From Malacoraja senta (Eukaryota), in the NCBI GenBank assembly GCA_038087875.1, contig CM075991.1, positions 434,001-498,000 on the forward strand: a stretch of 64,000 nt of DNA, read 5' to 3'. This document shows positions 4,745-61,962 of this stretch, in pieces. How positions within the stretch are numbered: the first letter of the stretch is position 1; every line of letters begins with the position of its first letter. Position numbers and translations under genes: made by a program. The notes beneath the pieces were generated by a model. That model worked only from the letters and a program-made list of their open reading frames with translations, ran no database searches and was not told the DNA's origin.

Positions 4745-6570
4745 GGACAAGGGAGAGCCAGTGGATGTAGTGTACCTGGACTTTCCGAAAGCATTTGGTA
4801 AGGTCCCACATAGGAGATTAGTGGGCAATATTAGGGCACATGGTATTGGGGGTAGAGCGCTGACGTGGGATAGACAATTGGTTGGCAGACAGGAAACAAA
4901 GAGTAGGGATTAACGGGACCCTTTCAGATGGCAGGCAGTGACTATTGGGGTACCGCGAGGCTCGGAGCTGGACCGCAGCTATTTACAATATACATCAATG
5001 ATTTAGATGGAGGGATTCAAAGTAACATTAGCAAATTTGCAGATGACACAAATCTGGGTGTCAGTGTGAACTGTGAGGTGAGAGGGCAGATGCATGGCAG
5101 ATGCAGTTTAATGTGGTATATATGTGAGGTTATTCATAGCAAAAGGATTTGAATATAGGAGCAGGGAGGTTCTACTGCAGTTGTACAGGGTCTTGGTGAG
5201 ACCACACCTGGAGTATTGCGTACAGTTTTGGTCTCCAAATCTGAGGAAAGACATTCTTGCCATAGAGGGAGTACAGAGAAGGTTCAGCAGACTGATTCCT
5301 GGGATGTCAGGACTTTCATATGAAGAAAGACTGGATAGACTTGGCTTGTACTCGCTAGAATTTAGAAGATTGAGGGGGGATCTTATAGAAACTTACAAAA
5401 TTCTTAAGGGGTTGGACAGGCTAGATGCAGGAAGATTGTTCCCGATGTTGGGGAAGTCCAGGACAAGGGGTCACAGTTTAAGGATAAAGGGGAAATCCTT
5501 TAGGACCGAGATGAGAAAAATATTTTTCACACAGAGAGTGGTGAATCTCTGGAACTCTCTGCCACAGAAGGTAGTTGAGGCCAGTTCATTGGCTATATTT
5601 AAGAGGGAGTTAGATGTGGCCTTGTGGCTAAAGGGATCAGAGGGTATGGAGAGAAGGCAGGTACAGGATACTGAGTTGGATGATCAGCCATGATCATATT
5701 GAATGGCGGTGCAGGCTCGAAGGGCCGAATGGCCTACTCCTGCACCTATTTTCTATGTTTCTATGTTTTTTATGTTATCCATTTTGGTAGCAAAAACAGG
5801 AAGGCAGATTATTATCTAAATGGTGTCGTTGGGAAAAGGGGAAGTACAATGGGATCTTGGGGTCCTTGTTCATCAGTCAATGAAAGTAAGCATGCAGGTA
5901 CAGCAGGCAGTGAAGAAAGCGAATGGCATATTGGCCTTTATAACAAGAGGAGTTGAGTATAGGAGCAAAGAGGTCCTTCTGCTGTTGTATAGGGCCCTAG
6001 TGAGACCACACCAGGAGTATAGTGTGCAGTTTTGGTCCCCTAATTTGAGGAAGGACATTCCTGCTATTGAGGGAGTGCAGCGTAGGTTTACAAGGTTAAT
6101 TCCCGGGCTGGCGAGACTGTCATATGCTGAGAGAATGGAGTGACTGGGCCTGTATACTCTGGAATTTAGAAGGATGAGAGGGAATCTTATTGAAACATAA
6201 AAGATTTTTAAGGGTTTGGACACGCTAGAGGCAGGAAACACGTTCCCGATGTTGGGGGAGTTCAGAACCTGTGGCCACAGTTTAAGAATAAGGGGTAAGG
6301 CATTTAGAATGGAGATGAGGAAACACTTCTGCACACAGAGAGTTGTGTCTGTGGAATTCTCTGCCTCAGAAGGCAGTGGAGGCCGGTTCTCTGGATACTT
6401 TCAAGAGAGAGCTTGATAGGGTTCTTGAAGATAGCAGAGTCAGGGGATATGGGGAGAAGGCAGGATCGGGATACTGATTGTGGATAATCAGCCATGATCA
6501 CATTGAATGGCGGTGCTGACTCGAAGGGCCGAATGGCCTACTCCTGCACCTATTGTTTATTGTGTATTAC
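4745..6570 (+). mobile_element. CR1 LINE 3' portion with a younger CR1 3' portion (about 5136-5770) nested inside
   Basis: FADDT and RPHLEYCVQFWSP...RRLRGDLIE motifs occur twice, and there are two separate microsatellite tails. Confidence 0.9.
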
Positions 6571-11550: not shown

Positions 11551-11706
11551 AAGAGGCTGGAGCTAACTGTGTTAACGTGTGACAAGTTTGCACTGACCTG
11601 TAATGTCAGTGTGCCCTCCCCCAGTTATACAACATACTGGCCTGACACCCTTATAATGACCACACTGCCCTGACCTGTGACCCTGGCGTGCTGGGCTGGA
11701 GCTCAC

Positions 11707-11899
11707 CTCGTCAGACAGATGATTGCAACGCTCTATTAGTTGGCAGCGCAGTGCGGGACGGCCTGGGTCCACTGGCACCTCCGCCTGTCGACCATCGCCC
11801 AGCAAAAAGCAAACCAGTTGATCCAGCAGCTGAGGGGACGTGGTGTGAGCCAGGATCCCCGTCAGCAGTGCGGTGGAGGACAGGATGGCCATCTCCGAC
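11707..11899 (-). CDS. FHIP2B: FHIP2B-like exon 10: SEMAILSSTALLTGILAHTTSPQLLDQLVCFLLG...LIERCNHLSDE
   Basis: gtctag acceptor, gtgagc donor, 193 nt. Contains SE..IL.STALL and LI..C.HLSDE motifs. Confidence 0.93.
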
Positions 11900-12325
11900 C
11901 TAGACACCGTGAACAGTGGTGGTAGTCAGTCTCGTGAAGAGAAACGTGGGCAATAGGAGCATGAGAAGGCCATTCGGCCCTTCATATCTGCTAGGCCAGT
12001 CAACATGATCACAAAACATTCAACTTAAAACCCACCCCATCCCTGCCCCCTCTCTTCCATCTGGCCCCAAGAATGTCAAGAGTATTTGTTTGTCATATAT
12101 CCCAAAATGGAACAGACATTCTTACCTCCTTCCTGAATATATTCATGAATGATATTCCCTGAATATAGTCAATGATTTGGCTTCAACTACTTTCTCTAAT
12201 GCAGCATTCCACAAGTTCAGCACTCTCCCATTGACAGAGTTATACGACATGCTAATTCCATGCGGACCAAGACGCCTATCCAAATGTATTCAATTTTCCT
12301 GTATTTGGTCCAAATCCCTCTAAAA

Positions 12326-17942: not shown

Positions 17943-19090
17943 TTACCTGGACCATTTCCGACATCTCTGTACAGTTTCTAGACCTCACTATCTCCATCGT
18001 AGGTAACAGACTACTGACCGACATCTCCTACAAACCCACTGACTCCCATGACTATCTGGACTACACTTCCTCCCACCCTGCTTCCTGCAAGGACTCTATC
18101 CCCTACTCCCAATTCCTATGTCTACGCCACATCTGCACCCAGGATAAGTTGTCCCAAACCAGGGCTTCGGAGATGTCCTCATTCTTTAGGGAACGGGGGT
18201 TCCCCTCTTCCACTATAGATGAGGCTCTCTCCAGGGTCTCCTCTATATCCCGCAGCTCTGCTCTCACTCCCCACCCCCCCACTTGTAACAAGGACAGAAT
18301 CCCCCTTGTCCTCACCTTCCACCCTACCAGCCGTCACATACAACATATAATCCTCCGACATTTTCGTCACCTCCAACGTGATCCCACCACTGGCCACATC
18401 TTCCCATCTCCTCCCCTTTCTGCTTTCCTCTGAGATCGTTCCCTGGTCAATTCGTCCCTTCCCACCCAGACCACCCCCACCCATGGTACTTTCCCTTGCA
18501 ACCGCAGGAAATGCTACACTTGTCACTTTACCTGCCCCCTCGACTCCATCCAAGGACCCAAGCAGTCTTTCCAGGTGAGGCAGAGGTTCACCTGCACCTC
18601 CTCCAAACTCATCTATTGCATCCGCTGTTCCAGGTATCAGCTGCTCTACATCGGTGAGACCAAGCGCAGGCTTGGCGATCGCTTCGTCCAACACCTCCGC
18701 TCAGTTCGCAATAACCAACCTGATCTCCCGGTGGCTCAGCACTTCAAGTCCCCCTCCCATTCCGAATCCGACCTTTCTGTCCTGGGCCTCCTCCATGGCC
18801 AGAGTGAGTCCCACCGCAAATTGGAGGAACAGCACCTCATATTTCGCTTGGGTAGTTTACACCCCAGCAGTATGAACATTGACCTCCAATTTCAGGTAGT
18901 CCTTGCTTTCTCCTTCCTTCCCCTCCCCTTCCCAGCTCTCCTACAGCCCACTGTCTCTGCCTCTTCCTTTCTTTCCCCCCCCCCCGACATCAGTCTGAAG
19001 AAGGGTCTCGACCCGAAACGTCGCCTATTCCTTCGCTCCATAGATGCTGCCTCACCTGCTGAGTTTCTCCAGCTTTTTTGTCTACCTACA
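17943..19090 (+). mobile_element. Penelope-like element, 3' part (RT C-terminus, GIY-YIG endonuclease, terminal repeat)
   Basis: FLDL..YKPTDSH.YLDYTSSHP..CKDSIPYSQF and FTCTS..LIYCIRCSR...LYIGETKRRLGDRF..HLRSV. Confidence 0.9.
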
Positions 19091-20087
19091 ATATTTGCAC
19101 AGTTAACTACTCCAGAATGAAGAAGGGTCCTAACCCAAAATATTGCCTATTCTTGTTTCCCAAGGATGCTACCTGACCCGCTGAGTTACTCCAGCGCTTT
19201 GTGTTTTTTGCTTAACATTCTGGTAACCTCTTCTGCACCAAAGCCTCTACATACTTCCTGTAATGGGACGAGCAGAACTGCACACTACATTACATTTGCA
19301 GCATCATCAAAGTATTATAAAGCTGCAACATGACTTCCTGACTCTTATACTCAAATTAAAAAAAATGCCTTTGAGAGATTCACAACTCTCTGAGAGAAAG
19401 ATTTCTTGATTAGAATGGGTGTCAAGGGGAGAAGGCAGGAAAATGGGATTAGGAGGCAGATCAGCCATGATTGAATGGCGGTGTGGACTCAATGGTCCAA
19501 ATGGCCTATTTCTACTCCTATAACTTGTGAACTTGTGGAAGAAAAGATTTGCCTCAACTGTCTTTTGCTGAGGTGGAAACCCTGTTCTGTGAGAGGAAGT
19601 GCCCACCTGTGAGAACTCTCCATTGATAGACACAAAATGCTGGAGTAACTTAGTGGGTCGGGCAGCATCTGGAGAAAAAGGATGGGTGGCATTTTGGGTC
19701 GGGACTGACTATCTATTTATTATCTTAATTTAAGACAATAAAATATAACACGATTCCTCTTCTTCAGATACTTTTGTTGAGGTATTTTTAAATGTCTACG
19801 TTTGTATTCACTGTAATATTGAATTCCAGAATGCAACTAGGAGTAAAACCTATTGGGAATGGCCTTTTTGATTCATGGATTATCACTTGGTGAAAGCATC
19901 TCCTTCATAAGTCTGAGTTGAGTTTATGGTCACGTGTACTGAGGTACAGTGAAAAGCCTTTGTTGCCTGCACAAGTCAGGGATCATGTGGAATTCATCGC
20001 TTAAGCAATACGAAACATTGCAATAATCTGACACAATGCAAACATTTCTTCATTTTCTGATTCTTAAACTTGAATAGTTTTATGTAC

Positions 20088-40313: not shown

Positions 40314-40513
40314 NNNNNNNNNNNNNNNNNNNNNNNNNNNNNNNNNNNNNNNNNNNNNNNNNNNNNNNNNNNNNNNNNNNNNNNNNNNNNNNNNNNNNNN
40401 NNNNNNNNNNNNNNNNNNNNNNNNNNNNNNNNNNNNNNNNNNNNNNNNNNNNNNNNNNNNNNNNNNNNNNNNNNNNNNNNNNNNNNNNNNNNNNNNNNNN
40501 NNNNNNNNNNNNN
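40314..40513. other. Assembly gap (200 N)
   Basis: Run of N. Confidence 1.
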
Positions 40514-50248: not shown

Positions 50249-50785
50249 AAAAAGACGTCCCACTCCCGGTCATTCCGTCTTCCCCCCGCTCCCAACCAGC
50301 AGAAGATACAGAAGCTTGAAAGCGTGCACCACCAGACTCAGGAACAGCTTCTTCCTCCCTGTTATCAGTCTTCTGAGCGGTCCTTCCATAAGCTGTCCGA
50401 TTCACCTCTACCCCATTGCGGACATTGGACTTTGTCTGTGGAACTGGTGTGCTACAATGCTGAGAACTAGATTCTACACTCTGTATCTTCCCCTTTGCTC
50501 TACATATTGTACTGGACTTTATGTTTATATATATTATCTGATCAGATTGGATAGCATGCAGAATGAAACTTCACTGTACCGTGACTATAATAATCTCAAA
50601 CCTAAACCACATGACAATAAACTCCACTCGAACAGGAACTTTAGTTGCATTTCCTGTCTGCAAAACACATCCAACACTCTAGGGTGTCCTGGCCAAGGTC
50701 ATGTTTAAATGCAGTTTGATGACGCTTGTGTGCCGCTCTGATTGTTGTTAACGGCAGACAGGCCCGGAGGGGCTGAAGACCAGCA

Positions 50786-51420
50786 TCATGGACAGTGTCC
50801 AGCTGAACACACCCAGCACCGTGGACAGTGTCTGGCTGAAACCACCCAGCACCATGGACAGCATCTGGCAGCTGGAAAACACCCAGCATTGTGGACAGGG
50901 TCCAGCTGAAACCACCCAGCACCATGGACAGGGTCTGGTAGCTGGAAAACACCCAGCATTGTGGACAGGGTCCAGCTGAAACCACCCAGCACCATGGACA
51001 GCATCTGGCAGCTGGAAAACACCCAGCATTGTGGACAGGGTCCAGCTGAAACCACCCAGCACCATGGACAGGGTCTGGCAGCTGGAAAACACCCAGCATT
51101 GTGGACAGGGTCCAGCTGAAACCACCCAGCACCATGGACAGCATCTGGCAGCTGGAAAACACCCAGCATTGTGGACAGGGTCCAGCTGAAACCACCCAGC
51201 ACCATGGACAGCATCTGGCAGCTGGAAACCACCCAGCACCATGGACAGGGTCCAGCTGAAACCACCCAGCACCATGGACAGGGTCGAGCTGAACACACCC
51301 AACATTGTGGACAGCGTTGAGCTGAAAACACCCAGCCCCATGGACAGCGTCTGGCTACCAGTAAACTCCCAACACCATGGACAGCGTCCAGCTGAAACCA
51401 CCCAGCACCGTGGACAGCGC
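50786..51420. repeat. Compound minisatellite; 33- and 37-bp subunits form a 70-bp unit
   Basis: tccagctgaa recurs at 50901, 50971, 51041, 51111 and 51181. Confidence 0.95.
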
Positions 51421-53545
51421 TCGGCACTGAGCCGAGGCCGGGGCCAAAGGAGCAAAGGTCGTGGCCAATATGTGGGAATTAGATTGACCAACCTGCACCT
51501 TGTCCGCCCACTCCTTAAACACCAAGGCAGTTCCAACCAGAGATAAGGAAGGGGCGAGAAAGAGAGAGCGAGAGAGAGATTCCTTCTCGTTACTATTGTC
51601 CTTCACTATAACTAAATGACATCACGAGTTCACCTGCCACGAGGGTTTGGGTGAAGTGATTGTCATCCCCAACACCACTACACTCACACATCGTTGCCTC
51701 TGTATTTGAAATCTCCTGCTGCAATTGCCGACAGGCTATCACTGCCCACACACGCGTTACTTTGCCTACCCATGCAGACAACTTCCCATTCATCCAGCAT
51801 GCTGCATCTGCCATGTTTGTCCAAATTGCCTCGAAGCCCCTGCATCCTCCTCACCACTCATCATCCCAGCCAGCTTTGTTTTGGCAGCCAAGATAGAAAC
51901 ACCACCTCTGCTTCCCTTATCTGAATCTTTGACACACATCATGAATCACTGGGCCACGAGTACAGATACATCTAATTTATATATATTTAAATACAATCCT
52001 TTGTGGTTAGACACAAAATGCTGGAGTAACTCAGTGGGACTGAAGTCTGAAGAAGGGTCGAGACCCGAATCGTCACCCATTCCTTCTCTCCAGAGACGCT
52101 GCCTGTCCCACTGAGTTACTCCAGCATTTTATCTCTATCTTCCGTTTAAAGCAGCATCTGCAGTTCCTTCCTACACTGTTCCTCATGGTTACTGTTTACC
52201 AACCAATTTTCAAGCACACATGCTTTAATTTTGAACGCACATCTTTTATGTAGCTGTATACATTTGAGGTATACAAAGTGCAGTACCTCAGAAAATTAAT
52301 GCATATGGGTGTATTTAGACTGTCCTAAGGTCCCACATAATGGCAAGACCCCAACAGACCCCAATCATTGAAGATAGAGGGCATCCTCTACGATAATCCT
52401 CAACACTGGTGCTCCACAGATATGTTTCCTCACCCCTTTACTCCGTGTACGCCCACGACTGCAGCCAAGTACAAATCCAATCCAATTTACAAATTTGCAG
52501 ACAACCCCACTGTTATGGGCAGGATATTAAATAACGGGATTTCAGCTGCAGGGGATGGTTGGACACATTTGGATTGCTTTCTCTGGAATGTCGAAGAGTG
52601 AGAGGAGACCTGATTGAAGTATATAAAATTATGAGAAGCATAAATAAGGTAGTCTGTGAGAACCTTTTCCCTCGGGTGGAAATATCAACGATTAGAGGGC
52701 ATAGCCTTCCAATGAATGGGACAATGTTTAAAGAAGATGAATGGGGCGAATTTTTTACCCGGTGGTGTGTGGTGGTGTGTATCTGCCAGGGATGGTAGTG
52801 GAGACAGAAACGATAGAGGCATTTAAGAAGGTTTTAAATAGGCACATGGATATGCAGGGAATGGAGGGATATGGATCACCTGCAGGCAGAGGAGATTCAT
52901 TTAATTTGGGAATCTGTCGGGTACAGACATTGTGGGCTGAAGATTCTGTTCCTGGGCTGTACTGTTCTATGGTCTATGACTGGCATCTTGTTTAGCACGG
53001 ACATTGCGGGTCAAAGGGCCTGTTCCTGTACTTTACCGTTCTATGTCCTATTTATTTTAGCAGCTAAAACATCCAAAAACCCTACAGGTTTGTCAAATAT
53101 TCCCTTTTATAAACCGATGCTGACTTTGCTGACATGAGGTAAACAGGTCCATGGCACCGACATTCTCCTTCCTTCTCGTCGTGGGATTACATTGCTAGGC
53201 CTCCAATCTGTAGGAACTGTTCCATCATCTGGAGAATCCTCGGACACGACATCAGTGCACCCACTGATGTCCTTCTCTGTGGACACATTATCAGGCACTG
53301 AAAATAAACTGGCTTTCACTCCATCATTGGTTTATTTTACTTCGGAGTCACGTGAGTGACTACGTGAAGAACCCCGCCAGTGCGCCTGCGCGTCATTACG
53401 TCAGACGCCTTGACGCAAACGGACGTGAGGAGCAGAGCTCCTCCAGTGGTTTGTAGTTTTTCAACTACAAGGTAAGTAAAAACTTTTTTCAGGTTTTCCA
53501 GGTCCGTTTACTGTGGGTCTATGGGGATTTTTTCCACAGACGCCA

Positions 53546-54800
53546 TGTAAAAAACGCACAGGGGGAAGAGGCGAGCGACACAGCCGACAGAAAGTCGGGA
53601 AAGTCGGGAGTCCACGGTTAGAGACCAACCGCCTCTAAACCCCGGTACAGTCGCCAGCGGTGAGCATAGCGACTGTGGACCTGGGGCTGGTGAAAACACA
53701 GTCAGCGCCTGTCGGGCAAAAGACAACGTTTAAATCCCAACGGCCCACGGAGGGAGTCCCAGGCAATGGAAGTAGCTCCAGGGCTAGATACTGCTTTCAA
53801 GCGTATTGCCCAAATAGAAAGCCTTTTACACAGGCTGTTGGAGCAAGTTCACTCAGGGAGGAGTGTACTGAAAGCCAAGCTGCTGGAAACAGCTCAAACA
53901 GCCCCTGGTACAGGGCTAGATACTGCTTTCGAGCGTATTGCCCAAATAGAAAGCCTTTTTCATAGGCTTTTGGAGCAAAGTTCACTCAGGAAGGAGTGTA
54001 CTGTAATCCAAGCTGCAGGAGCAGCTTAACAGCACCTGGTTCAGGGCTGATGGAATGCACCCTCAGGAATGAGGAGCGTGCTACGGGTCATGAGATTTCA
54101 GACCCCGACTCTGACGGTGAGGCTGTACAAGGCGATGAACGGCAGCTGCCAGATGTTCCACCCCTGGCAGTAGGATTCGCTGCCCCGTCAGGGTCAGGAG
54201 AGCCATTAGGAGAAGAACTGGCCTCCTTAATAAATTACTTGGTTTACCATTAGCTGGAACAGCAGGAGATGGATGAGACGGCAAGAAGGCAGGAGACCCC
54301 AAGTAACTGTGGGTTGCTAAAAGCAGCAGCAGTGAACCAAATTATCTGGGATCAGTTGCAGAGAATATTAAAGCTGCTGGGTTCTGGAAAAACTGCTTTT
54401 ACCAGAATAGCAGGTAACAACCATAAGATGACGAAGTTGCATCAGCAAGCACTGGGGTTCCTATGCAGCACCCACTTCGAGATCAATTATCTGAGGAAAG
54501 TGCTATACGGCCTACTATGAATCCGAAATTCGCTGCACTCTGCAAACCAAGTAATATACAATTACCCAACTTACTCTTTGGAGAGGATCTCGGGAGACGT
54601 ATTACAGAGTTGGAAGATGAAGCGAAAACAGGATTGATAAATACATCAATGGTTGCAAAGTCTGTAAAGAGGAAGTATCCTTTCAGACGTCATACGGATC
54701 CTAGACCAGGACCAAGTCGCTCATCAACGCAGGGACGTAGCTGGCGGCCTGCAGCGGGAGTAAGGACCAGTGGTGGTGCTTCCGGGAGAATCCAGGGATC
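53546..54800 (+). pseudogene. DIRS gag-like ORF1 remnant
   Basis: Fragments PSNCGLLKAAAVNQIIWD and LLFGEDL, broken by stops and frameshifts. Boundaries approximate. Confidence 0.7.
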
Positions 54801-56626
54801 TCAGAATACTCAAATGACTCGAGAGGTAGGTGGACCTGGTTCTCAGGAGAACATACTAACTGGATTAAGTCCAAAAGTTGGAGGCAGATTACGTCTCTTC
54901 TATAAACATTGGAAGAAGATTACTTCAGATGTGGTAATTCTGAATAATATACAAGGATTTCGAATTGAATTCAATCCAAATTATGATTTGCCTGTCCAGC
55001 ATGTTCCCAGCAGAACTCTCCACTTTGCGAAGTAATGGAGGTTCAAGTTGCGCTTCAAAACCCTATATATAAAAGGTGTTATTGAAGAATCAGTCTACCA
55101 AATTCACCAATTTGGGTCAAATATATTCCCTCGATCAAAAAAGGATGGAGGATGTAGGATTATTATAGACTTGACAAGTCTGAATACTTTTGTTCAGTGT
55201 CTGTTCACTTGCAAGATATGAAGTATTTTAAATTTACATGGATGAACCAATTAGGGCAGTTCAAAGCTCTGCCTAAAGGGTTAACGTTCCCTCCCAGAAT
55301 ATTCATAAAAATCAATTCTGGGGTTGCTGAGAGCCAGGGGCATGTACTAATGGCATACCTGGATGATGTCCTGATTATAGGAAGGACAAAACAGTCAACA
55401 GAAGCATCTGTTGCAGTAATAAAATCAAACTTTTGAAAGTTTGGGGGTTTCTAAATTCATCCAAAGAAATCAAGGTTAAAAACATGTACCTCGATTAATT
55501 ATTTGGGGTTCACAATTGATTTAGCCCAAATGCAAATTACTTTGCCCAGTGAAAAAAGGGTGGAGTTGATTAAAGATTGCAGTAATCTGTTAAACGAGCT
55601 AAAACCTCTAATCAGACAGGTGGCTCGAGTACTGGGAAAATTAGTAGATTCCCAGCAGTCCAGTATGGACCATTACATTATCAACAGCTGCAGACAATTA
55701 AAGAACAGGCACTGAGAGTAAATGCTGGTCATTTTGATAGAACCATGCAAGTAACAACAAATGCTGTTTCTAAGCTGCAGTGGTGGATTCAACATGTCTC
55801 AAGCAGTTCAGGCAAAGTGCTGATTGAACAACCTTCCATGATATTACAAACTGATGCCAGTGCACTAGGATGGGGTGCAACTGACTTAACATGGAGCTGC
55901 AGAGGCAGATGGAATCAGGAAAAGTTAGTGTTACTGCAGACATGGGGAATTCCCTATTTGGAGCTTTTAGGAGGTTTCTATGGACTCCAAGTTTATGGTT
56001 CTAACACAACTAAAAGGAAGGTTCAAGTTCAAATTAATAAACACAACAGTAGTTGCCTATATTAATGATATGGGTGGAATTAAGTCGGTGTCATGTGACA
56101 AAATGGTTAAATCAACTTGGGTCTTGGTGTATTGAAAAGAACATTTGGATTTCAGCTATCTATCTACCAGGTAGAATGAACACGATAGCAGACACCAGGT
56201 CACGAAAAGTTCCATGATAATAAAGAATGGATGTTGAATCAAGAGGTATTCAATGATATAGTAATCAGATTTGGAATGACCGACATCGACTTGAATCATC
56301 AGCTATCGAGATATGTCTCATGGAAACCAGATCCAGGAGCAGTGGCGATTGATGCTTTCTCGCTACATTGGGGTGGTATGTTTTCATATATATTTCCACC
56401 TTTCTGCCTCATAAGCCAATGTTTGCTTAAAATCAGGCAAGATGCTGCTTCAAGGGTATTGGTAGTACCAGATTGGCCTACACAGCCATGGTATCTGTTG
56501 ATATTAGAATTAACAACACAAATGTTGATGAAAGTCCCAAAAAGGAGTAATTTATTGCTGCACCCTGTAACAGGGTAACAACATCCATTATGTGATCGTT
56601 TGGATTTGTTGATTTGCAGGTTTTAA
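54800..56626 (+). pseudogene. DIRS pol remnant (RT, RNase H, methyltransferase-like domain)
   Basis: Fragments VGGRLRLFYKHW, KKDGGCRIIIDL, MAYLDDVLI, LQTDASALGWGA and DAFSLHW..YIFPPF..VVPDWPTQPWY, with multiple disruptions. Confidence 0.88.
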
Positions 56627-56628
56627 GA

Positions 56629-57592
56629 ATGCCTTTTCTGGGACGAGGACTGTCTGAGCGTACTGTGGACATGCTTACGGCAGCCGGGAGGAAGAGCACT
56701 CAAAAACAGTACCTTTCTTATATTAAGAAATGGGAAGAGGTCTGTGTACAAAAGAATGTTCAATAAAGTACTGCAGATATTTCAAATGTTTAGAATTTCT
56801 GTCAAAACTTTATTATGATGAAGGTCTGAGTTGTAGTGCAATTAATTCAGCCAGAAGTGCATTGTCCTCATATTTGGTTCTGGATTCAGAAAGAAACTCA
56901 ATTGGGTCACACCCAATTGTTTCCAGACTAATGAAAGGAATCTTTAATTCCAAACCACCGAAACCTAGGTACGTGACAATCTGGGATGTAAGTGTGGTAC
57001 TGAAACTACTTTGTGAATGGTCATAAAGTGTGTCTTTACCTTTGGTCAAGCTCAGTATGAAGGTATTCATGCTTATGGCATGAGTGACAGCACAACGAGT
57101 GCAAACACTTGGAAAATTACAAATAGACAGTATGGAAGTAACTGAAGACAAGGTTACATTCTATATCTTTGACCTACTAAAGTAAATTAGGCCAGGTGTG
57201 ACAGGATTTAAAATTATGCTAGCAGCATATCCAAATGATCCATGTCTCTGTATTAAGACATATCTGTTACAATACATTGAGGTCACAAAGAATTTGAGAA
57301 TACGGAAACTGGGTTGTTGATCACACACAAGAAACCACACAAGAGAGTTTCAATACAGACTATTTCCAGATGGATAAAAGAAGTCTTAACAGCTGCTGGT
57401 ATTAACACTTATGTTTTTACGTCTCACTCGACTAGGGCAGCAGAAACGTCGGCGGCCAGGGCAAAAGACGTCCCCGTCGATCATATCCTCGCAGCCGCCG
57501 GGTGGTCCAATGAGTTGATGTTTCAACATTTTTACCATCGGCCTATTGTTAATGCGGGATTGTTTGCAGAAACTATTTTAAGTTCTGTGTAA
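56629..57592 (+). pseudogene. DIRS tyrosine recombinase remnant
   Basis: Fragments STQKQY..W, SAINSARSALS, GSHPIVSRLMKGIFN.KPPKPRY..WDV and HSTRAA...AAGWS....FQHFY, with in-frame stops. Confidence 0.9.
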
Positions 57593-58960
57593 ATTCCTCT
57601 GGTTTAAAGGGGATCTGATTCATTTCATTATTGAAATGAATTACTGCATTTGTGGTACAAATGTTATTATGAATGCATGATTGATTATTCTCGTTCCGAG
57701 TCAATCTATGCAGTGAGAAGCCGGGATTGATCCACGGCATGAAATCACAAAGCTTTAAAATCTTCACGTAGTCACTCACGTGACTCCGAAGTAAAATAGT
57801 AAGATTAAACGAGAACTTACCTAAGTTTGAAGTTTGATCTTTATTTTATGAGGAGTTACGTAGGTGATTACATGCCCACCACGACCCTACCCTCTATCAT
57901 AAAGGTCAGATGGAAGTTCTTGTATTACTCGTTTTATTATGAGACTATATTACTTCGGTTGTTGTTTTTTGTGATTTCACACCGCTGCTTTGAAGATTGA
58001 CGCGCAGGCGCACTGGCGGGGTTCTTCACGTAATCACCTACGTAACTCCTCATAAAATAAAGATCAAACTTCAAACTTAGGTAAGTTCTCGTTTAATCTT
58101 ACTATTTTTTACCAGTGCTAATTACCACCATCCAAGACTGCAAGAAATTGCAGAGAATTGTGAACACAGCCCAGACCATCATCCCTTCCATTGACTCCAT
58201 TTATATCTAACACTACCTCGGCAAGGCCAGCAGCATAATCAAGGACGAGTTGCACCCCGGCCACTCCCTCTTCTCCCCTCTCCCATCAGGCAAAATGTGT
58301 AGGTGTGAAAACACACACCTCCTGATTCAGGGACAGTTTCTTCCCAGCTGTTATCAAGCAACTGAATCATCCTACCACAACCTGAGAGCAGGGCTGAACT
58401 ACTATCTACATCTTTGGTGACCCTCGCAGTTTCCCTGAACAGACTTTGGTGGCGTTACCTTGCACGAAACATTATTCCCTTGTACTAGACTGTAAATGGA
58501 CACTTGATGTACGGCTCGATTGTAATCATGTATTGACTTTCTGCTGACTGGCTACACACAACAAAAGCATTTCACTGTACCTGGGTACACGGGACAATCA
58601 ACTCAACTAAACTTGAAGTCTTCCTTTTGATTGGACTCTGGTTGCCAACCATTTCTGGGAACATACTTGTTCCCGCTTACATGAAGTCAGAAGCGACGTA
58701 TTGGTTTAATTTAATTATCCTGCTACTTCTTTGTCCCATTACAAATTCTCCCATTTCTGACTGTAAGATACCCACATTTATCTTCTACAAGATATTTGTG
58801 TTCACGTACATGGTGGGCTGGTGCTAAACTATTGTGACAGGATTGACTTGCACCAATTGTTCAGCAGGGTGGGAGATTCTGTCTGACTAATTTGACAGTG
58901 TTTGTTGTAACAAAATGTATGGCTGAGAGCAGTGTGGTGGGTGGACTATAGTCAGGCTTT

Positions 58961-59282: not shown

Positions 59283-61962
59283 CAAGATGAGTCAAGATGG
59301 AATAGTGGTGGAAACGGCCTCATGGATTGGCCATCTGCCAGTGACCTCACGCTTCTGTATGATCCAAAGGAGCCAAACAGCTTCCATTCAGCCCGCTGGA
59401 ACACTGGTACGAACCCAGACCTTTGCCAGTAACACAAAGAACCATCAGCCACCAACGCACTGGGTTCTGGAGAAGTTCCCACGGTCACAACACCGACCAT
59501 CACTCATCACCGCAACACCAGCCATCAGCCATGATCATATTGAATGGCGGTGCAGGCTCGAAGGGCCGAATGGCCTACTCCTGCACCTATTTTCTATGTT
59601 TCTATGTTCTATGTTTCTACCACTGGTTGCACCAACATCGAGCAAACCTGTGAAGCGGTGGAACTTCCGCAAGGCCGACTGGGACAAGTTCCAACGCAGC
59701 TGCCTTGGGCCTTCCTCCCCCAGACAGTACCAACCTGGACTCTTCCTACCAAGCCTACTGCAACATGCTTATCAGGGCAGGCAAGAAAACCACCCCTCAT
59801 GGCTACCAGAGGCATTACATTCCATGTTGGGATGATGAGTGTCAACAGCCATATGAAGATCATACTGCTGCTGGCACCAAAGAGGATTCTGAAACCACTG
59901 CCACTACACTGCTCACACGCTTGGATGAGAAATGACAAGAATGCTGGATTGAGACGGTTGAATCGATCGACTTCACCCACTCGAGCCGTAAAGCATGGCA
60001 CACAGTCAACCGCCTGACCGGCAGAACGACATCCAAATGCCTCGTGACCGCCAACGCAATCGCATCTCAACGTCAAGAATGGTTGATTCACAAACCCTGA
60101 CCGTGATTTCTCACGCAAAGTGAGCAAAAAGGTGGCCGAGTCATGGAAAACTGAGTGGATACGGACCTAACAATGGCTTTCACCTCCGGGGAAATGGCCA
60201 CAGCATTCAATATGTGGAAAGCAGGAAAGGCCCCCGGATCTGACAGCATACACCCGGAGTTTCTACTACATTCTGAAAACGTTGCTACCAACTGGATCCG
60301 ACAGTACCTGTCGACCTCCATGGAGAAGTGCACAATACCAAAGATCTGGCGTCGTGCAACAGTCATCGCTCTCCCGAAGCCGAACAAGCCAAAGGATGAT
60401 CCTAAAAGCTACCGGCCCATCTTGCTCCTCTGCATCCCATACAAACTCCTTGAGAGACTGATCCATGAGTGTATAGACCCTCAACTACCCCACGAGCAGG
60501 CTGGTGTCCACCAAGGTCGATCTACAGCGGACCAGGTAACCCTCCTCACCCAAGACATCGAGGACTGATTTGAGGCAAATGAGAAGGCAGGAGCTGTTCT
60601 TATAGATCTGACAGCTGCCTATGACACCATGTGGCACCGGGGACTAACTGCAAAGCTACTTCGGGTGCTGGCAGACAGGCGCATGCTACACTACATCATG
60701 GAGCTGATATCAAACCGCAGCTTTGTGCTTAACAACAGTGATCTTAAGACAGTAAGCTACGTAGACTGAAGAATGGCGTCCCACAGGGATCCGTCTTGGC
60801 TCCGCTGCTTTTCAAAGTGTACATCCATGACCTCCCAGAGACCATCGCTGGAAAATATGGGAATGCTGACGATCTAGCCATCCTGATGAGACACAAAGTG
60901 TGGAAGACAATTGAAAGCTCCTTGAGTCAAGACATGGGGACTTTGGTAGTATACTTACGACAGTGGCGTCGAAAGCTGAGCGAAGGCATTACAGTGTCAA
61001 CAGCATTCCATCTAAACTACACGGAAGCTAAGTTAGAACTAGCTGTTTTCGTTAACAACTGGAGCTTGGACTTCCAACAAACACCTACTTACCTCGACGT
61101 AAAGCCGGACAGGTCGTTTACATTTCGTCAACACCTGGCTGGTCACGACATGGCCATGTAACGGCCTCATCCAACACCTGGCAGGAACAAGTTGGGGAGC
61201 CAGCCCATCAACTCTTCGCACCTCTGCCTTAGCTCTTGTGTATGCCCCAGCTGAGTACTGCACACCCATATGGAGTAGAAGTAGACATACTAGCCTGGTA
61301 GACACGAGCCTGAACAGCACCTTGTGAACCATCACTGGGTGCCTTCAACCTACTCCAGTCGAGCAGCTCCCTATACTTGCAGGCATTCCGCCTGCAGGGA
61401 TCCGAAGGCAAGCAGCAACTCTGGCACTGTCTCATCGTGCCATGGACCCAGATCACCTCCTCCATCAGGCTATCAGCAGAGAGCAGAGGCCACCCTGACT
61501 GAAGTCCTGTCACCCCTTTGTCCACATGGAAAACAACTCCTAGCATCCATCCAGCCAACTGAGACAAAAGCACACTGGATAGCCACCAAGTGGTCACAGG
61601 AGTGGAAGGCAACCTCATCTCCATTACACAGCTACATCTCTTCACCAGATAAAAGCTGTCCAGGGTCTGAGCTCCCCAGAGGAGCAAGGGTGAAGCTCAA
61701 CAGACTTGGTACTGGAGTTGGGCGTTTCAACGCCAGCGTGTGGAGATGGGGGCTCCCTCCGCCAGAGCCCAGCCTGTGAATGCGGAGCAGAACAACAGAC
61801 AGCCAACCATGTCATCTCTGGGTGCCCGCTCTACCACCCACCAAATGGAGCTGTGTCAGGGCCTGGCAGACATTGACGCCAACAGAGACAACAACCTGGC
61901 TGCTCAACACCCGGCTTGAGATCTAACTATTCCTTTGGTTTCTGTTCCATTTGCAATAAAAT
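59283..61962 (+). mobile_element. 5'-truncated Ingi/Vingi-like (I-group) non-LTR retrotransposon, degenerate
   Basis: Endonuclease tail (SFHSARWNTGTNPDL), RT (SYRPILLL, DLTAAYD, PQGSVLAPLLF, ADD) and a C-terminal CECG..H...C zinc motif, with no RNase H seen. The 10-bp TSD acatggtgtt lies at 59273-59282 and 61963-61972. Clade assignment is from memory of motifs. Confidence 0.75.
59526..59619 (+). mobile_element. Short CR1 3' end nested in the Vingi-like element
   Basis: Matches the CR1 tail at 5683-5765 and ends in (ttctatgt)n. Confidence 0.85.

Follow-up and report, generated by a model that had tools for sequence, protein, structure and literature searches.

How can a retrotransposon keep termini that match their internal copies almost letter for letter when its genes are dead? 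This question is raised by a DIRS1-like element in the 64-kb window (the whole stretch of DNA that was analysed), for which an earlier note had proposed that the coding decay predates the insertion and that a defective lineage is being moved by an autonomous partner. Direct sequence comparison returned the three reverse-complement matches of that note exactly: the left end with the ICR (53333-53370 vs 57761-57798, 38/38), the right end with the ICR (58030-58102 vs 57799-57871, 73/73) and the inverted terminal repeat (ITR) pair (53361-53395 vs 57998-58032, 35/35). Its description of the termini as flawless holds for these three matches, but the full right-end match is 81/82 (58027-58108 vs 57793-57874), with a mismatch at 58029/57872 that is private to this copy and lies just outside the 73/73 window. 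The parts are as follows, the term rE being taken from section 10 of PMC3266345.

53333..58108, + strand: DIRS1-like element in full, 4.78 kb when the 6-bp identity is included at each end; from the repeat matches and the depth rise at the left border
53333..53370, + strand: left terminus, 38/38 complementary to the left ICR
53361..53395, + strand: left ITR, conserved part, 35/35 with 57998-58032
57761..57798, + strand: left ICR, 38/38 with the left terminus
57793..57874, + strand: right ICR, 82 nt; 6-nt overlap with the left ICR, the circle junction; private mismatch at 57872
57998..58061, + strand: right ITR, conserved at 57998-58032 and divergent to ~58061
58062..58108, + strand: right extension (rE, ~47 nt), complementary to the right ICR only

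As in DIRS1-like elements, the terminal repeats are inverted and comprise conserved and divergent parts (89% identity overall across 65 nt), the 3′-proximal ICR is complementary to both termini with an overlap at the circle junction, and a short T-rich sequence, TATTTT, read from the filled site only, is found at both ends (53333-53338 and 58103-58108) and at the ICR junction, so that the border of the element cannot be placed within those six bases. The split direct repeats of PAT-like, Ngaro and VIPER elements are not found, the terminal repeats being inverted and the sole long direct repeat being an internal 132/133-nt duplication. Exact reverse-complement matches in the element reach 79 nt, vs 18 or less in 200 dinucleotide-block shuffles.

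The genes between these ends are broken, as had been claimed: frameshift-aware alignment to database relatives gave 22 lesions, four in gag, 12 in pol and six in YR.

53779..54048, + strand: internal tandem duplication within the 5′ part of ORF1, the units 89% identical at a period of 132/133 nt
53844, + strand: one-base indel in the tandem duplication, common to much of the family
54035..54846, + strand: gag-like ORF1 remnant, 37-54% identity to six relatives
54251 (stop), ~54352 (11-codon deletion), ~54501 (frameshift), + strand: gag lesions, from the alignment
54823..56623, + strand: pol remnant (RT, RNase H, Dam-like methyltransferase)
~55015/55064 (frameshift pair), 55185-55196 (~33-codon deletion), ~55310 (3-codon deletion), + strand: pol lesions, 5′ part
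55427, 55455, 55648, 56040, 56122, 56207, + strand: pol frameshifts
56290 (5-codon deletion), 56576 (stop), + strand: pol lesions, 3′ part
55356..55367, + strand: retained RT YLDD motif, read in the sequence; RVT_1 E 1.6e-5, under the Pfam cut-off
56620..57592, + strand: tyrosine recombinase (YR) remnant; Phage_integrase E 7.7e-6, just under the cut-off
56764, 57024, 57081, 57183 (stops), ~56789, 57301-57313 (frameshifts), + strand: YR lesions
57425..57436, + strand: YR HSTR motif

The RT does lack its first catalytic-Asp motif, since the ~33 missing codons comprise motif A, and a D..DAY or DAY-type motif lies within the missing segment in 9/9 relatives spanning the region (ten were printed, one of them mis-anchored). 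The YLDD and HSTR motifs are still readable, the relatives of the element proteins carry PF00078, PF05869, PF17917 and PF00589, and collinear alignments place remnants of gag, RT, RNase H, methyltransferase and tyrosine recombinase in this order on one strand. The intact ORFs and catalytic motifs of an autonomous DIRS1 are thus missing; with three dead genes, the copying enzymes must be borrowed. Among the lesions indels outnumber stops, and several frameshifts fall in short homopolymer runs. On the left, the reading of 53107-53331 (minus strand) as a host exon was dropped for want of Pfam support; a faint resemblance to one of the window's LINE RTs (E 0.03) points to an old relic of a LINE.

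The family was compared in contigs of four out of 24 public sequencing runs, X1, X2, X3 and X6 among them, those with a share of 0.12 or below being left out; none of the 24 was listed as an RNA run, which carries no information on expression. Summed contig depth is not copy number, contigs drop rare variants, indels near contig ends may be clipped, which understates undamaged forms, and 321 substitutions, 34 indels and 209 joints exist beyond those listed. The left flank is single-copy in X1 (a 3,526-nt contig stopping at 53287, depth 27.1, zero differences), vs an interior depth of 3.0-7.5e5; in X2 the interior stands at 6-18e4 vs ~6.5 on the unique flank. At the left border depth climbs in X1 from 60 to 1.2e6, ~20,000-fold. 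The family is very high-copy.

Other copies, which the earlier note had proposed to search for common lesions, share 12/22 of them; two more are weakly shared and one is private, the comparison covering 15/22. Four of the 12 were quantified in X1 and X2, and eight were seen on single X3 or X6 contigs. The RT/RNase H frameshift at 55648 is carried by 99.94% of the depth in two runs, the form without it accounting for 265.5/459,809 (X1) and 33.4/57,710 (X2), or 0.058%, while the 56207 frameshift is missing from 29% of the depth in X1 and X2 alike and the site of the 57183 stop has another letter in 60.5% (X1) and 41% (X2). The YR frameshifts are crossed without gaps by an X3 contig (56595-57728, 13 substitutions) and by X6 contigs 56687-56891 and 56862-57347, the methyltransferase deletion by X6 56138-56350 (identical) and X3 56051-56543, the 55015/55064 pair by X3 54940-55161, and the 54501 frameshift by X3 54343-54760. 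For the RT deletion the contig extends only ~25 letters past the junction, vs a 31-letter standard. The lesions are nested, X6 contigs having the YR frameshifts without the 57183 stop, and the shared subsets differ from contig to contig, as expected of a lineage that decayed step by step while still copying. X3 and X6 (127 and 134 contigs aligned) bear other organism labels, barely cover the unique flank and may represent RNA or traces of DNA from a related host; they were not counted as proof of cross-species sharing or horizontal transfer. Inactivating lesions common to many copies, the mark of a non-autonomous YR element, are therefore found, as judged from contigs only and with the element's own flank single-copy.

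Because the lesions are common to other copies and nested, the decay most likely preceded the insertion and the family was most likely moved in trans, in agreement with both parts of the earlier proposal: only one lesion is shown to be private, the terminal pairs are near-matched, and the common lesions belong to a high-copy family. The element very probably belongs to a very high-copy family of DIRS1-like elements, near-full-length but non-autonomous, that is mobilised in trans. Its private change is ~0.3-1.1%, and there is one terminal mismatch, a private mutation within the ICR (57872), in 155 paired positions, vs 1.9-3.4 expected at 0.6-1.1% private change and ~9-14 predicted by decay in place (P ~1e-3 to 1e-5). 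The terminal mismatch count fits private change, not decay in place. The earlier word "recent" stands for a fairly young copy, but in a relative sense only, the insertion being perhaps millions of generations old. A single round of APOBEC-like or CpG hypermutation was rejected, as indels dominate the lesions and transversions make up 11/17 of the private substitutions among those listed. In X1 the window's letter has near-zero depth at several private sites, which may be mere contig simplification, and no empty-site joint was found among the 15 of 224 joints that were listed.

Base composition brings in one further feature.

53331..53730, + strand: CpG-rich 5′ region, CpG o/e 1.14 and 0.97; putative promoter/leader

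This region, from its composition, is probably a promoter or leader. CpG o/e is ~1 there, 0.8-1.3 at 57331-58130 and mostly 0-0.6 in the interior, a pattern also predicted if young ends of an active relative (the first 0.4 kb and the last 0.8 kb) were fused, through template switching or recombination, with an older body that had decayed, the chimera then being amplified in trans. The final 93 YR codons are without lesions and the bin 57837-58017, which includes unique spacer, is 2-4x deeper than the interior, both in line with such a mosaic; however, a lesion-free stretch of 280 nt is not rare at the observed lesion density, unmethylated promoter ends or native composition yield the same CpG pattern, and no breakpoint was seen. 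We consider this origin unlikely, and it would modify mobilisation in trans rather than replace it. Considerably less probable is that old copies died in place and gene conversion between the inverted repeats held their termini identical. The 3′ end does fold into a highly stable stem (-101 kcal/mol, z -18; 82 bp formed by the right ICR and the right end, with a 152-nt loop), the ends are CpG-rich against a CpG-poor interior, and the single mismatch is slightly under expectation; conversion, however, leaves the identical frameshifts and deletions of other copies (12/22 lesions) unexplained, the private mismatch at 57872 survives inside the stem, and the left-end pairs are exact too, despite lying 4.4-4.6 kb apart. 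If one dead locus had been multiplied by segmental or tandem duplication, shared lesions and high depth would equally follow; this is scarcely credible, given the single-copy left flank, the abrupt depth rise at the element border and the lack of a second copy in the 64-kb window. That the element is otherwise intact and its lesions are errors of assembly or consensus, as the homopolymer frameshifts and the excess of indels might suggest, can practically be dismissed: the same indels and deletions recur in other public runs, some of them letter-for-letter in the contigs, and base-calling does not typically remove 33, 11 or 5 codons.

For mobilisation in trans, the published DIRS-1 model suggests a route. 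A parent copy with intact CpG-rich ends would have been transcribed, its transcript copied by gag, RT and YR of a rarer related autonomous DIRS, the right ITR and the ICR used to restore the ends, and the circle junction recombined by YR with a matching T-rich 6-bp site. Each such cycle would reset the terminal pairs but transmit the coding lesions, so that the ends remain matched as lesions accumulate down the lineage. Protein homologue and representative searches turned up no close, intact version of pol, YR or gag, which is weak evidence given the limits of database and length; the best relatives reach 66% (pol), 59% (YR) and 49% (gag query) identity. No intact helper was seen in the public contigs: the rare undamaged contigs are short, and there are rare less-damaged and ~85%-identical relatives, one of which starts at the left terminus (X2, 53334-53540). 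With the undamaged form at ~0.06% of depth at one diagnostic site, it is possible, if rather doubtful, that the dead lineage out-replicated its helper by ~3 orders of magnitude and became one of the host's larger repeat families, keeping nearly full length over many rounds of decay. If so, DIRS replication would show little cis preference yet need length or internal RNA/cDNA signals, and the parts conserved while the ORFs rot would give a natural map of DIRS cis elements.

The family, probably from a cartilaginous fish, clearly illustrates a type of hitch-hiking that is known rather than new: a trans-acting DIRS RT (PMC7192593) and non-autonomous tyrosine-recombinase retrotransposons (10.1101/2022.06.16.496473) are already published. 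As the concept is known, the value of the finding is moderate. Laboratory work on DIRS-1 covered RT action in trans and integration of supplied cDNA, but left the whole cycle of a defective element unscored, and nested shared lesions with reset termini constitute population evidence that this whole cycle works in trans, with the ends rebuilt by the ICR in every round. An LTR-like insertion clock for DIRS copies is also offered by the terminal pairs. A repeat library of the host genome would contain a dead-ORF family sequence that could be mistaken for an old, inactive one.

Among known systems, the best named relatives are two DIRS proteins of skates, LOC116990664 from Amblyraja radiata and LOC129708389 from Leucoraja erinacea, whose annotation goes no further than "uncharacterized"; at 64-66% identity over RNase H/methyltransferase and 52-53% over YR, they are by sequence too distant to be the helper. 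The short-ITR DIRS1-like elements LgDIRS1, LgDIRS3 and AcaDIRS1 (Piednoel et al., 2011, PMC3266345, Table 3) have the same ITR-ICR-rE layout at near-identical sizes: divergent ITR ~28-30, conserved ITR 35, rE ~47 and ICR 38-82 here, vs 30/36/49 and ICR 42-86 in LgDIRS3. They also share the T-rich ends, the YLDD and HSTR motifs and the 4.8 kb length, whereas the element differs in that all its ORFs are dead and its end/junction identity is 6 nt vs their 3. Teleost, frog and lizard elements in the same table have conserved ITRs of 102-148 nt. The largest copy number in that survey is 2,091, in zebrafish, and depth suggests that the present family has at least as many copies.

Like the element, TOC1 of Chlamydomonas reinhardtii and zebrafish DIRS-N1 are non-autonomous tyrosine-recombinase retrotransposons. 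The "-N" of the latter stands for non-autonomous; TOC1 carries split direct repeats and lacks a recognisable pol, unlike the element, which retains a whole decayed gag-pol-YR body and ITR/ICR ends. TOC1 is termed an active nonautonomous DIRS retrotransposon (10.1101/2022.06.16.496473) and the name DIRS-N1 occurs (PMC5400779). Xenopus likewise has family-level DIRS-like sequences with interrupted ORFs: broken ORFs or repeats are given for 36/75 Repbase families of X. tropicalis and 13/20 of X. laevis in the accessible text of Gazolla et al. (2021, PMC9210276), where the ends are TTT, the ITRs ~120 nt, and the families are called degenerate, with trans-mobilisation untested. Dictyostelium DIRS-1, in the accessible sections of Malicki et al. 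(2020, PMC7192593), has an ICR complementary to both ends, as here, but is autonomous, with ITRs of ~300 nt; its RT acts in trans, endogenous proteins integrate supplied cDNA, and a truncated element yielded cDNA in trans while its full cycle could not be scored. Unlike that truncated element, the present family appears to be a natural population that has completed full cycles in trans.

Database relatives, the best named of which came from two skates, aligned collinearly across gag, pol and the tyrosine recombinase gene (YR) of the DIRS1-like element, and Pfam gave sub-threshold matches to RVT_1 and Phage_integrase on 2/16 fragments. The skate relatives, together with the abundance of LINEs in the window, suggest that the host is a cartilaginous fish. 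The element has the structural properties of DIRS1-like retrotransposons and lacks those of an autonomous one. Alignment to the relatives located 22 lesions in these forward-strand genes (4 in gag, 12 in pol and 6 in YR), whose positions are approximate and vary with the relative used:

53844, indel in gag
54251, stop in gag
about 54352, 11-codon deletion in gag
about 54501, frameshift in gag
about 55015 and 55064, pair of frameshifts in pol
55185-55196, deletion of about 33 codons in pol, including motif A of the reverse transcriptase (RT)
about 55310, 3-codon deletion in pol
55427, 55455, 55648, 56040, 56122 and 56207, frameshifts in pol
56290, 5-codon deletion in pol
56576, stop in pol
56764, 57024, 57081 and 57183, stops in YR
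about 56789 and 57301-13, frameshifts in YR

The loss of an RT catalytic motif, as the earlier note had it, was confirmed by this alignment. ORF1 also contains a tandem duplication at 53779-54048 (132/133 nt, copies 89% identical); a low-depth contig of the public run X1 jumps 132 nt there (53889 to 54022), and single-unit forms may exist. CpG dinucleotides were about as frequent as expected over the first 0.4 kb and last 0.8 kb (observed/expected about 0.8-1.3 in 53331-53730 and 57331-58130) and depleted in the interior (mostly 0-0.6), the 3′ CpG-rich block beginning inside the YR gene. A contrast of this kind could come from cis ends that are unmethylated, from the native composition or from a mosaic origin.

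The three exact reverse-complement matches previously reported among the termini and the internal complementary region (ICR) were all reproduced, the longest exact match being 79 nt, vs at most 18 in shuffled sequences (n=200). The right-end match proved longer than first given, the pairing running over 58027-58108 and 57793-57874 with one mismatch at 58029/57872. The six bases in which the two ICR halves overlap recur at both ends of the element, which is what would be left by a circle junction recombining with a matching target. Two motifs that we take to be splice-donor-like (AGGTAAGT), at 53468-53477 just inside the left inverted terminal repeat (ITR) and at 58078-58087 in the right extension, could be signals for spliced expression of the downstream ORFs.

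No other copy of the element was found within the 64-kb window. To look beyond it, 4 of 24 listed public runs, all four consisting of contigs (X1, X2, X3 and X6), were aligned to 52950-58350 at 80% likeness; X3 and X6, which carry other organism labels, are possibly trace DNA and were not taken as separate host species. In X1 the unique left flank was covered by a contig with zero differences at a depth of 27.1 and the element interior by bins of 3.0-7.5e5, and in X2 the values were about 6.5 and 6-18e4, summed contig depth being inflated by overlapping short contigs and not equal to copy number. The copy number of the family is likely in the hundreds to thousands, or higher. Relative to a right-flank repeat piece, which is LINE-like, presumably a LINE, and present twice in the window, interior depth was 0.16-0.41 (X1) and 0.3-0.96 (X2). 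Low-depth joints in X1 (53753-56078 and 54855-57837) skip 2.3 and 3.0 kb and mark internally deleted derivatives, and X1 and X2 alike carry a 34-nt insertion at 56857. In X6 the bin over the ICR (57656-57836) reached a depth of 1,253 and the interior 1-42, and loose ends stood before 57788; the right-ICR/right-extension sequence seems to be common to this and another DIRS family.

Elsewhere in the window the following features were observed:

1246-1445 and 40314-40513, two 200-N gaps
11575-11925 (-), exon-like ORF with an above-cut-off RAI16-like Pfam match (E 4.9e-12), which places a host gene in the window
18434-19117 (+), ORF with a weak, below-cut-off GIY-YIG match (E 3.6e-4), which may be a piece of a Penelope-like element
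50780-51419, array of tandem units of about 70 nt each, lying 1.9 kb to the left of the element
53107-53331 (-), left flank weakly similar to the RT motif region of a LINE (E 0.03 vs a window ORF); the element may have inserted in an old LINE relic
59524-59608, member of a young family of short repeats (85 nt), nearly identical to copies at 5683 (100%), 14814 (97%), 31878 (99%) and others

The search for other copies with the same lesions, proposed in the earlier note, found 12 of the 22 in public contigs; 15 were scored, of which two more were weakly shared and one was private (54251, 55310, 55427, 55455, 56040, 56576 and 57081 lie outside this count). Among the substitutions, indels, joints and pieces listed for the four runs, forms without the 55648 frameshift made up 265.5/459,809 of the depth in X1 and 33.4/57,710 in X2 (0.058% each), clipped indels possibly understating undamaged forms. 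The 56207 frameshift was absent from 29% of the depth in both runs, a variant form at 53844 reached 25% (X1) and 49% (X2), and the 57183 stop was replaced by another letter in 60.5% (X1) and 41% (X2). Long gap-free contigs of X3 or X6 run across the frameshifts at 54501, 55015/55064 (the pair), 56122, 56789 and 57301-13, the deletion at 56290 and the stop at 56764. The weakly shared lesions are the gag deletion, just left of which an X3 contig begins (54343), and the RT deletion, where another X3 contig aligned for at least 58 letters on each side of 55227, about 25 beyond the junction. The private one is the 57024 stop (another letter in 354,829.5/354,829.5 of the depth). X6 also contains less damaged forms, with contigs starting at 54369 and 55193 that carry 61 and 28 unaligned letters and 16.7/28.9 of the depth without the 55648 frameshift; it lacks the 57183 stop, yet has the YR frameshifts of the element, so the lesions fall into nested sets, as would be expected of stepwise gain in a lineage that continued copying.

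At least 17 substitutions among the 40 listed were private to this copy (another letter at ≥92% of depth in X1 and X2). One, a CpG loss at 57872, makes the ICR mismatch unique to this copy; the termini are not flawless, contrary to the earlier note. Eleven of the 17 are transversions, vs 134 transitions to 88 transversions over all X1 variable places, an excess that may be display bias. At least 7 of those listed fall in 56595-57728 (0.6%), where an X3 contig differs at 13/1,134 (1.1%). At 0.6-1.1%, 1.9-3.4 mismatches are expected over the 155 paired terminal positions and one was seen (P 0.45-0.15). Had all lesions arisen in place, at a decay that we assume from indel-to-substitution ratios to be roughly 3-4.5%, the expected number would rise to 9-14 (P 9e-4 to 1e-5). 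With the shared lesions, this shortage makes it very probable that decay preceded insertion and that the lineage was moved in trans, as originally proposed. The copy is recent in relative terms but perhaps not in absolute ones: at 7e-10 per generation, the rate of another species, the epaulette shark, with a wide interval (PMC10587355, available text), 0.3% (1 in 310 sites) to 1.1% corresponds to about 5-16 million generations, an upper guide, since RT errors or a rare parent copy may account for part of the private change.

In the DIRS-1 model, according to the available text of PMC7192593, the transcript lacks both extreme ends, the right ITR serves to rebuild the left ITR and the ICR to rebuild both termini; the ICR is essential, and both RT and the endogenous proteins that integrate supplied cDNA work in trans, the full cycle of a truncated construct not being scorable. 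By this model, defective parents with working ends would be copied by a helper, the ends being reset at each copying and the lesions passed on. Candidate relatives of the helper are the rare undamaged contigs and those about 85% identical (X2 53334-53540, depth 12.8; X2 55652-55803, depth 182.5; X1 55827-55986). A bolder and rather improbable reading is that the dead family has come to outnumber its helper by about a thousand to one and is kept full-length by a replication constraint.

In the accessible literature listings and abstracts, and in the papers cited here, we found no account of a vertebrate DIRS1 family that is full-length, dead in its coding regions and mobilised in trans, or of shark/ray DIRS families. 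As far as the accessible parts of the sources go, DIRS can reach 26-30% of a caecilian genome (PMC8498967) and Xenopus DIRS families with interrupted ORFs are catalogued (PMC9210276). The sizes found here (divergent ITR about 28-30, conserved ITR 35, right extension about 47, ICR 38-82) are near those of the mollusc elements LgDIRS1, LgDIRS3 and AcaDIRS1 (PMC3266345, in part). Non-autonomous YR retrotransposons are already known, among them the published TOC1 (10.1101/2022.06.16.496473) and, by name, DIRS-N1 (PMC5400779), both as given in the available text; the present element adds another member, one in which stepwise decay during continued copying is unusually well recorded.
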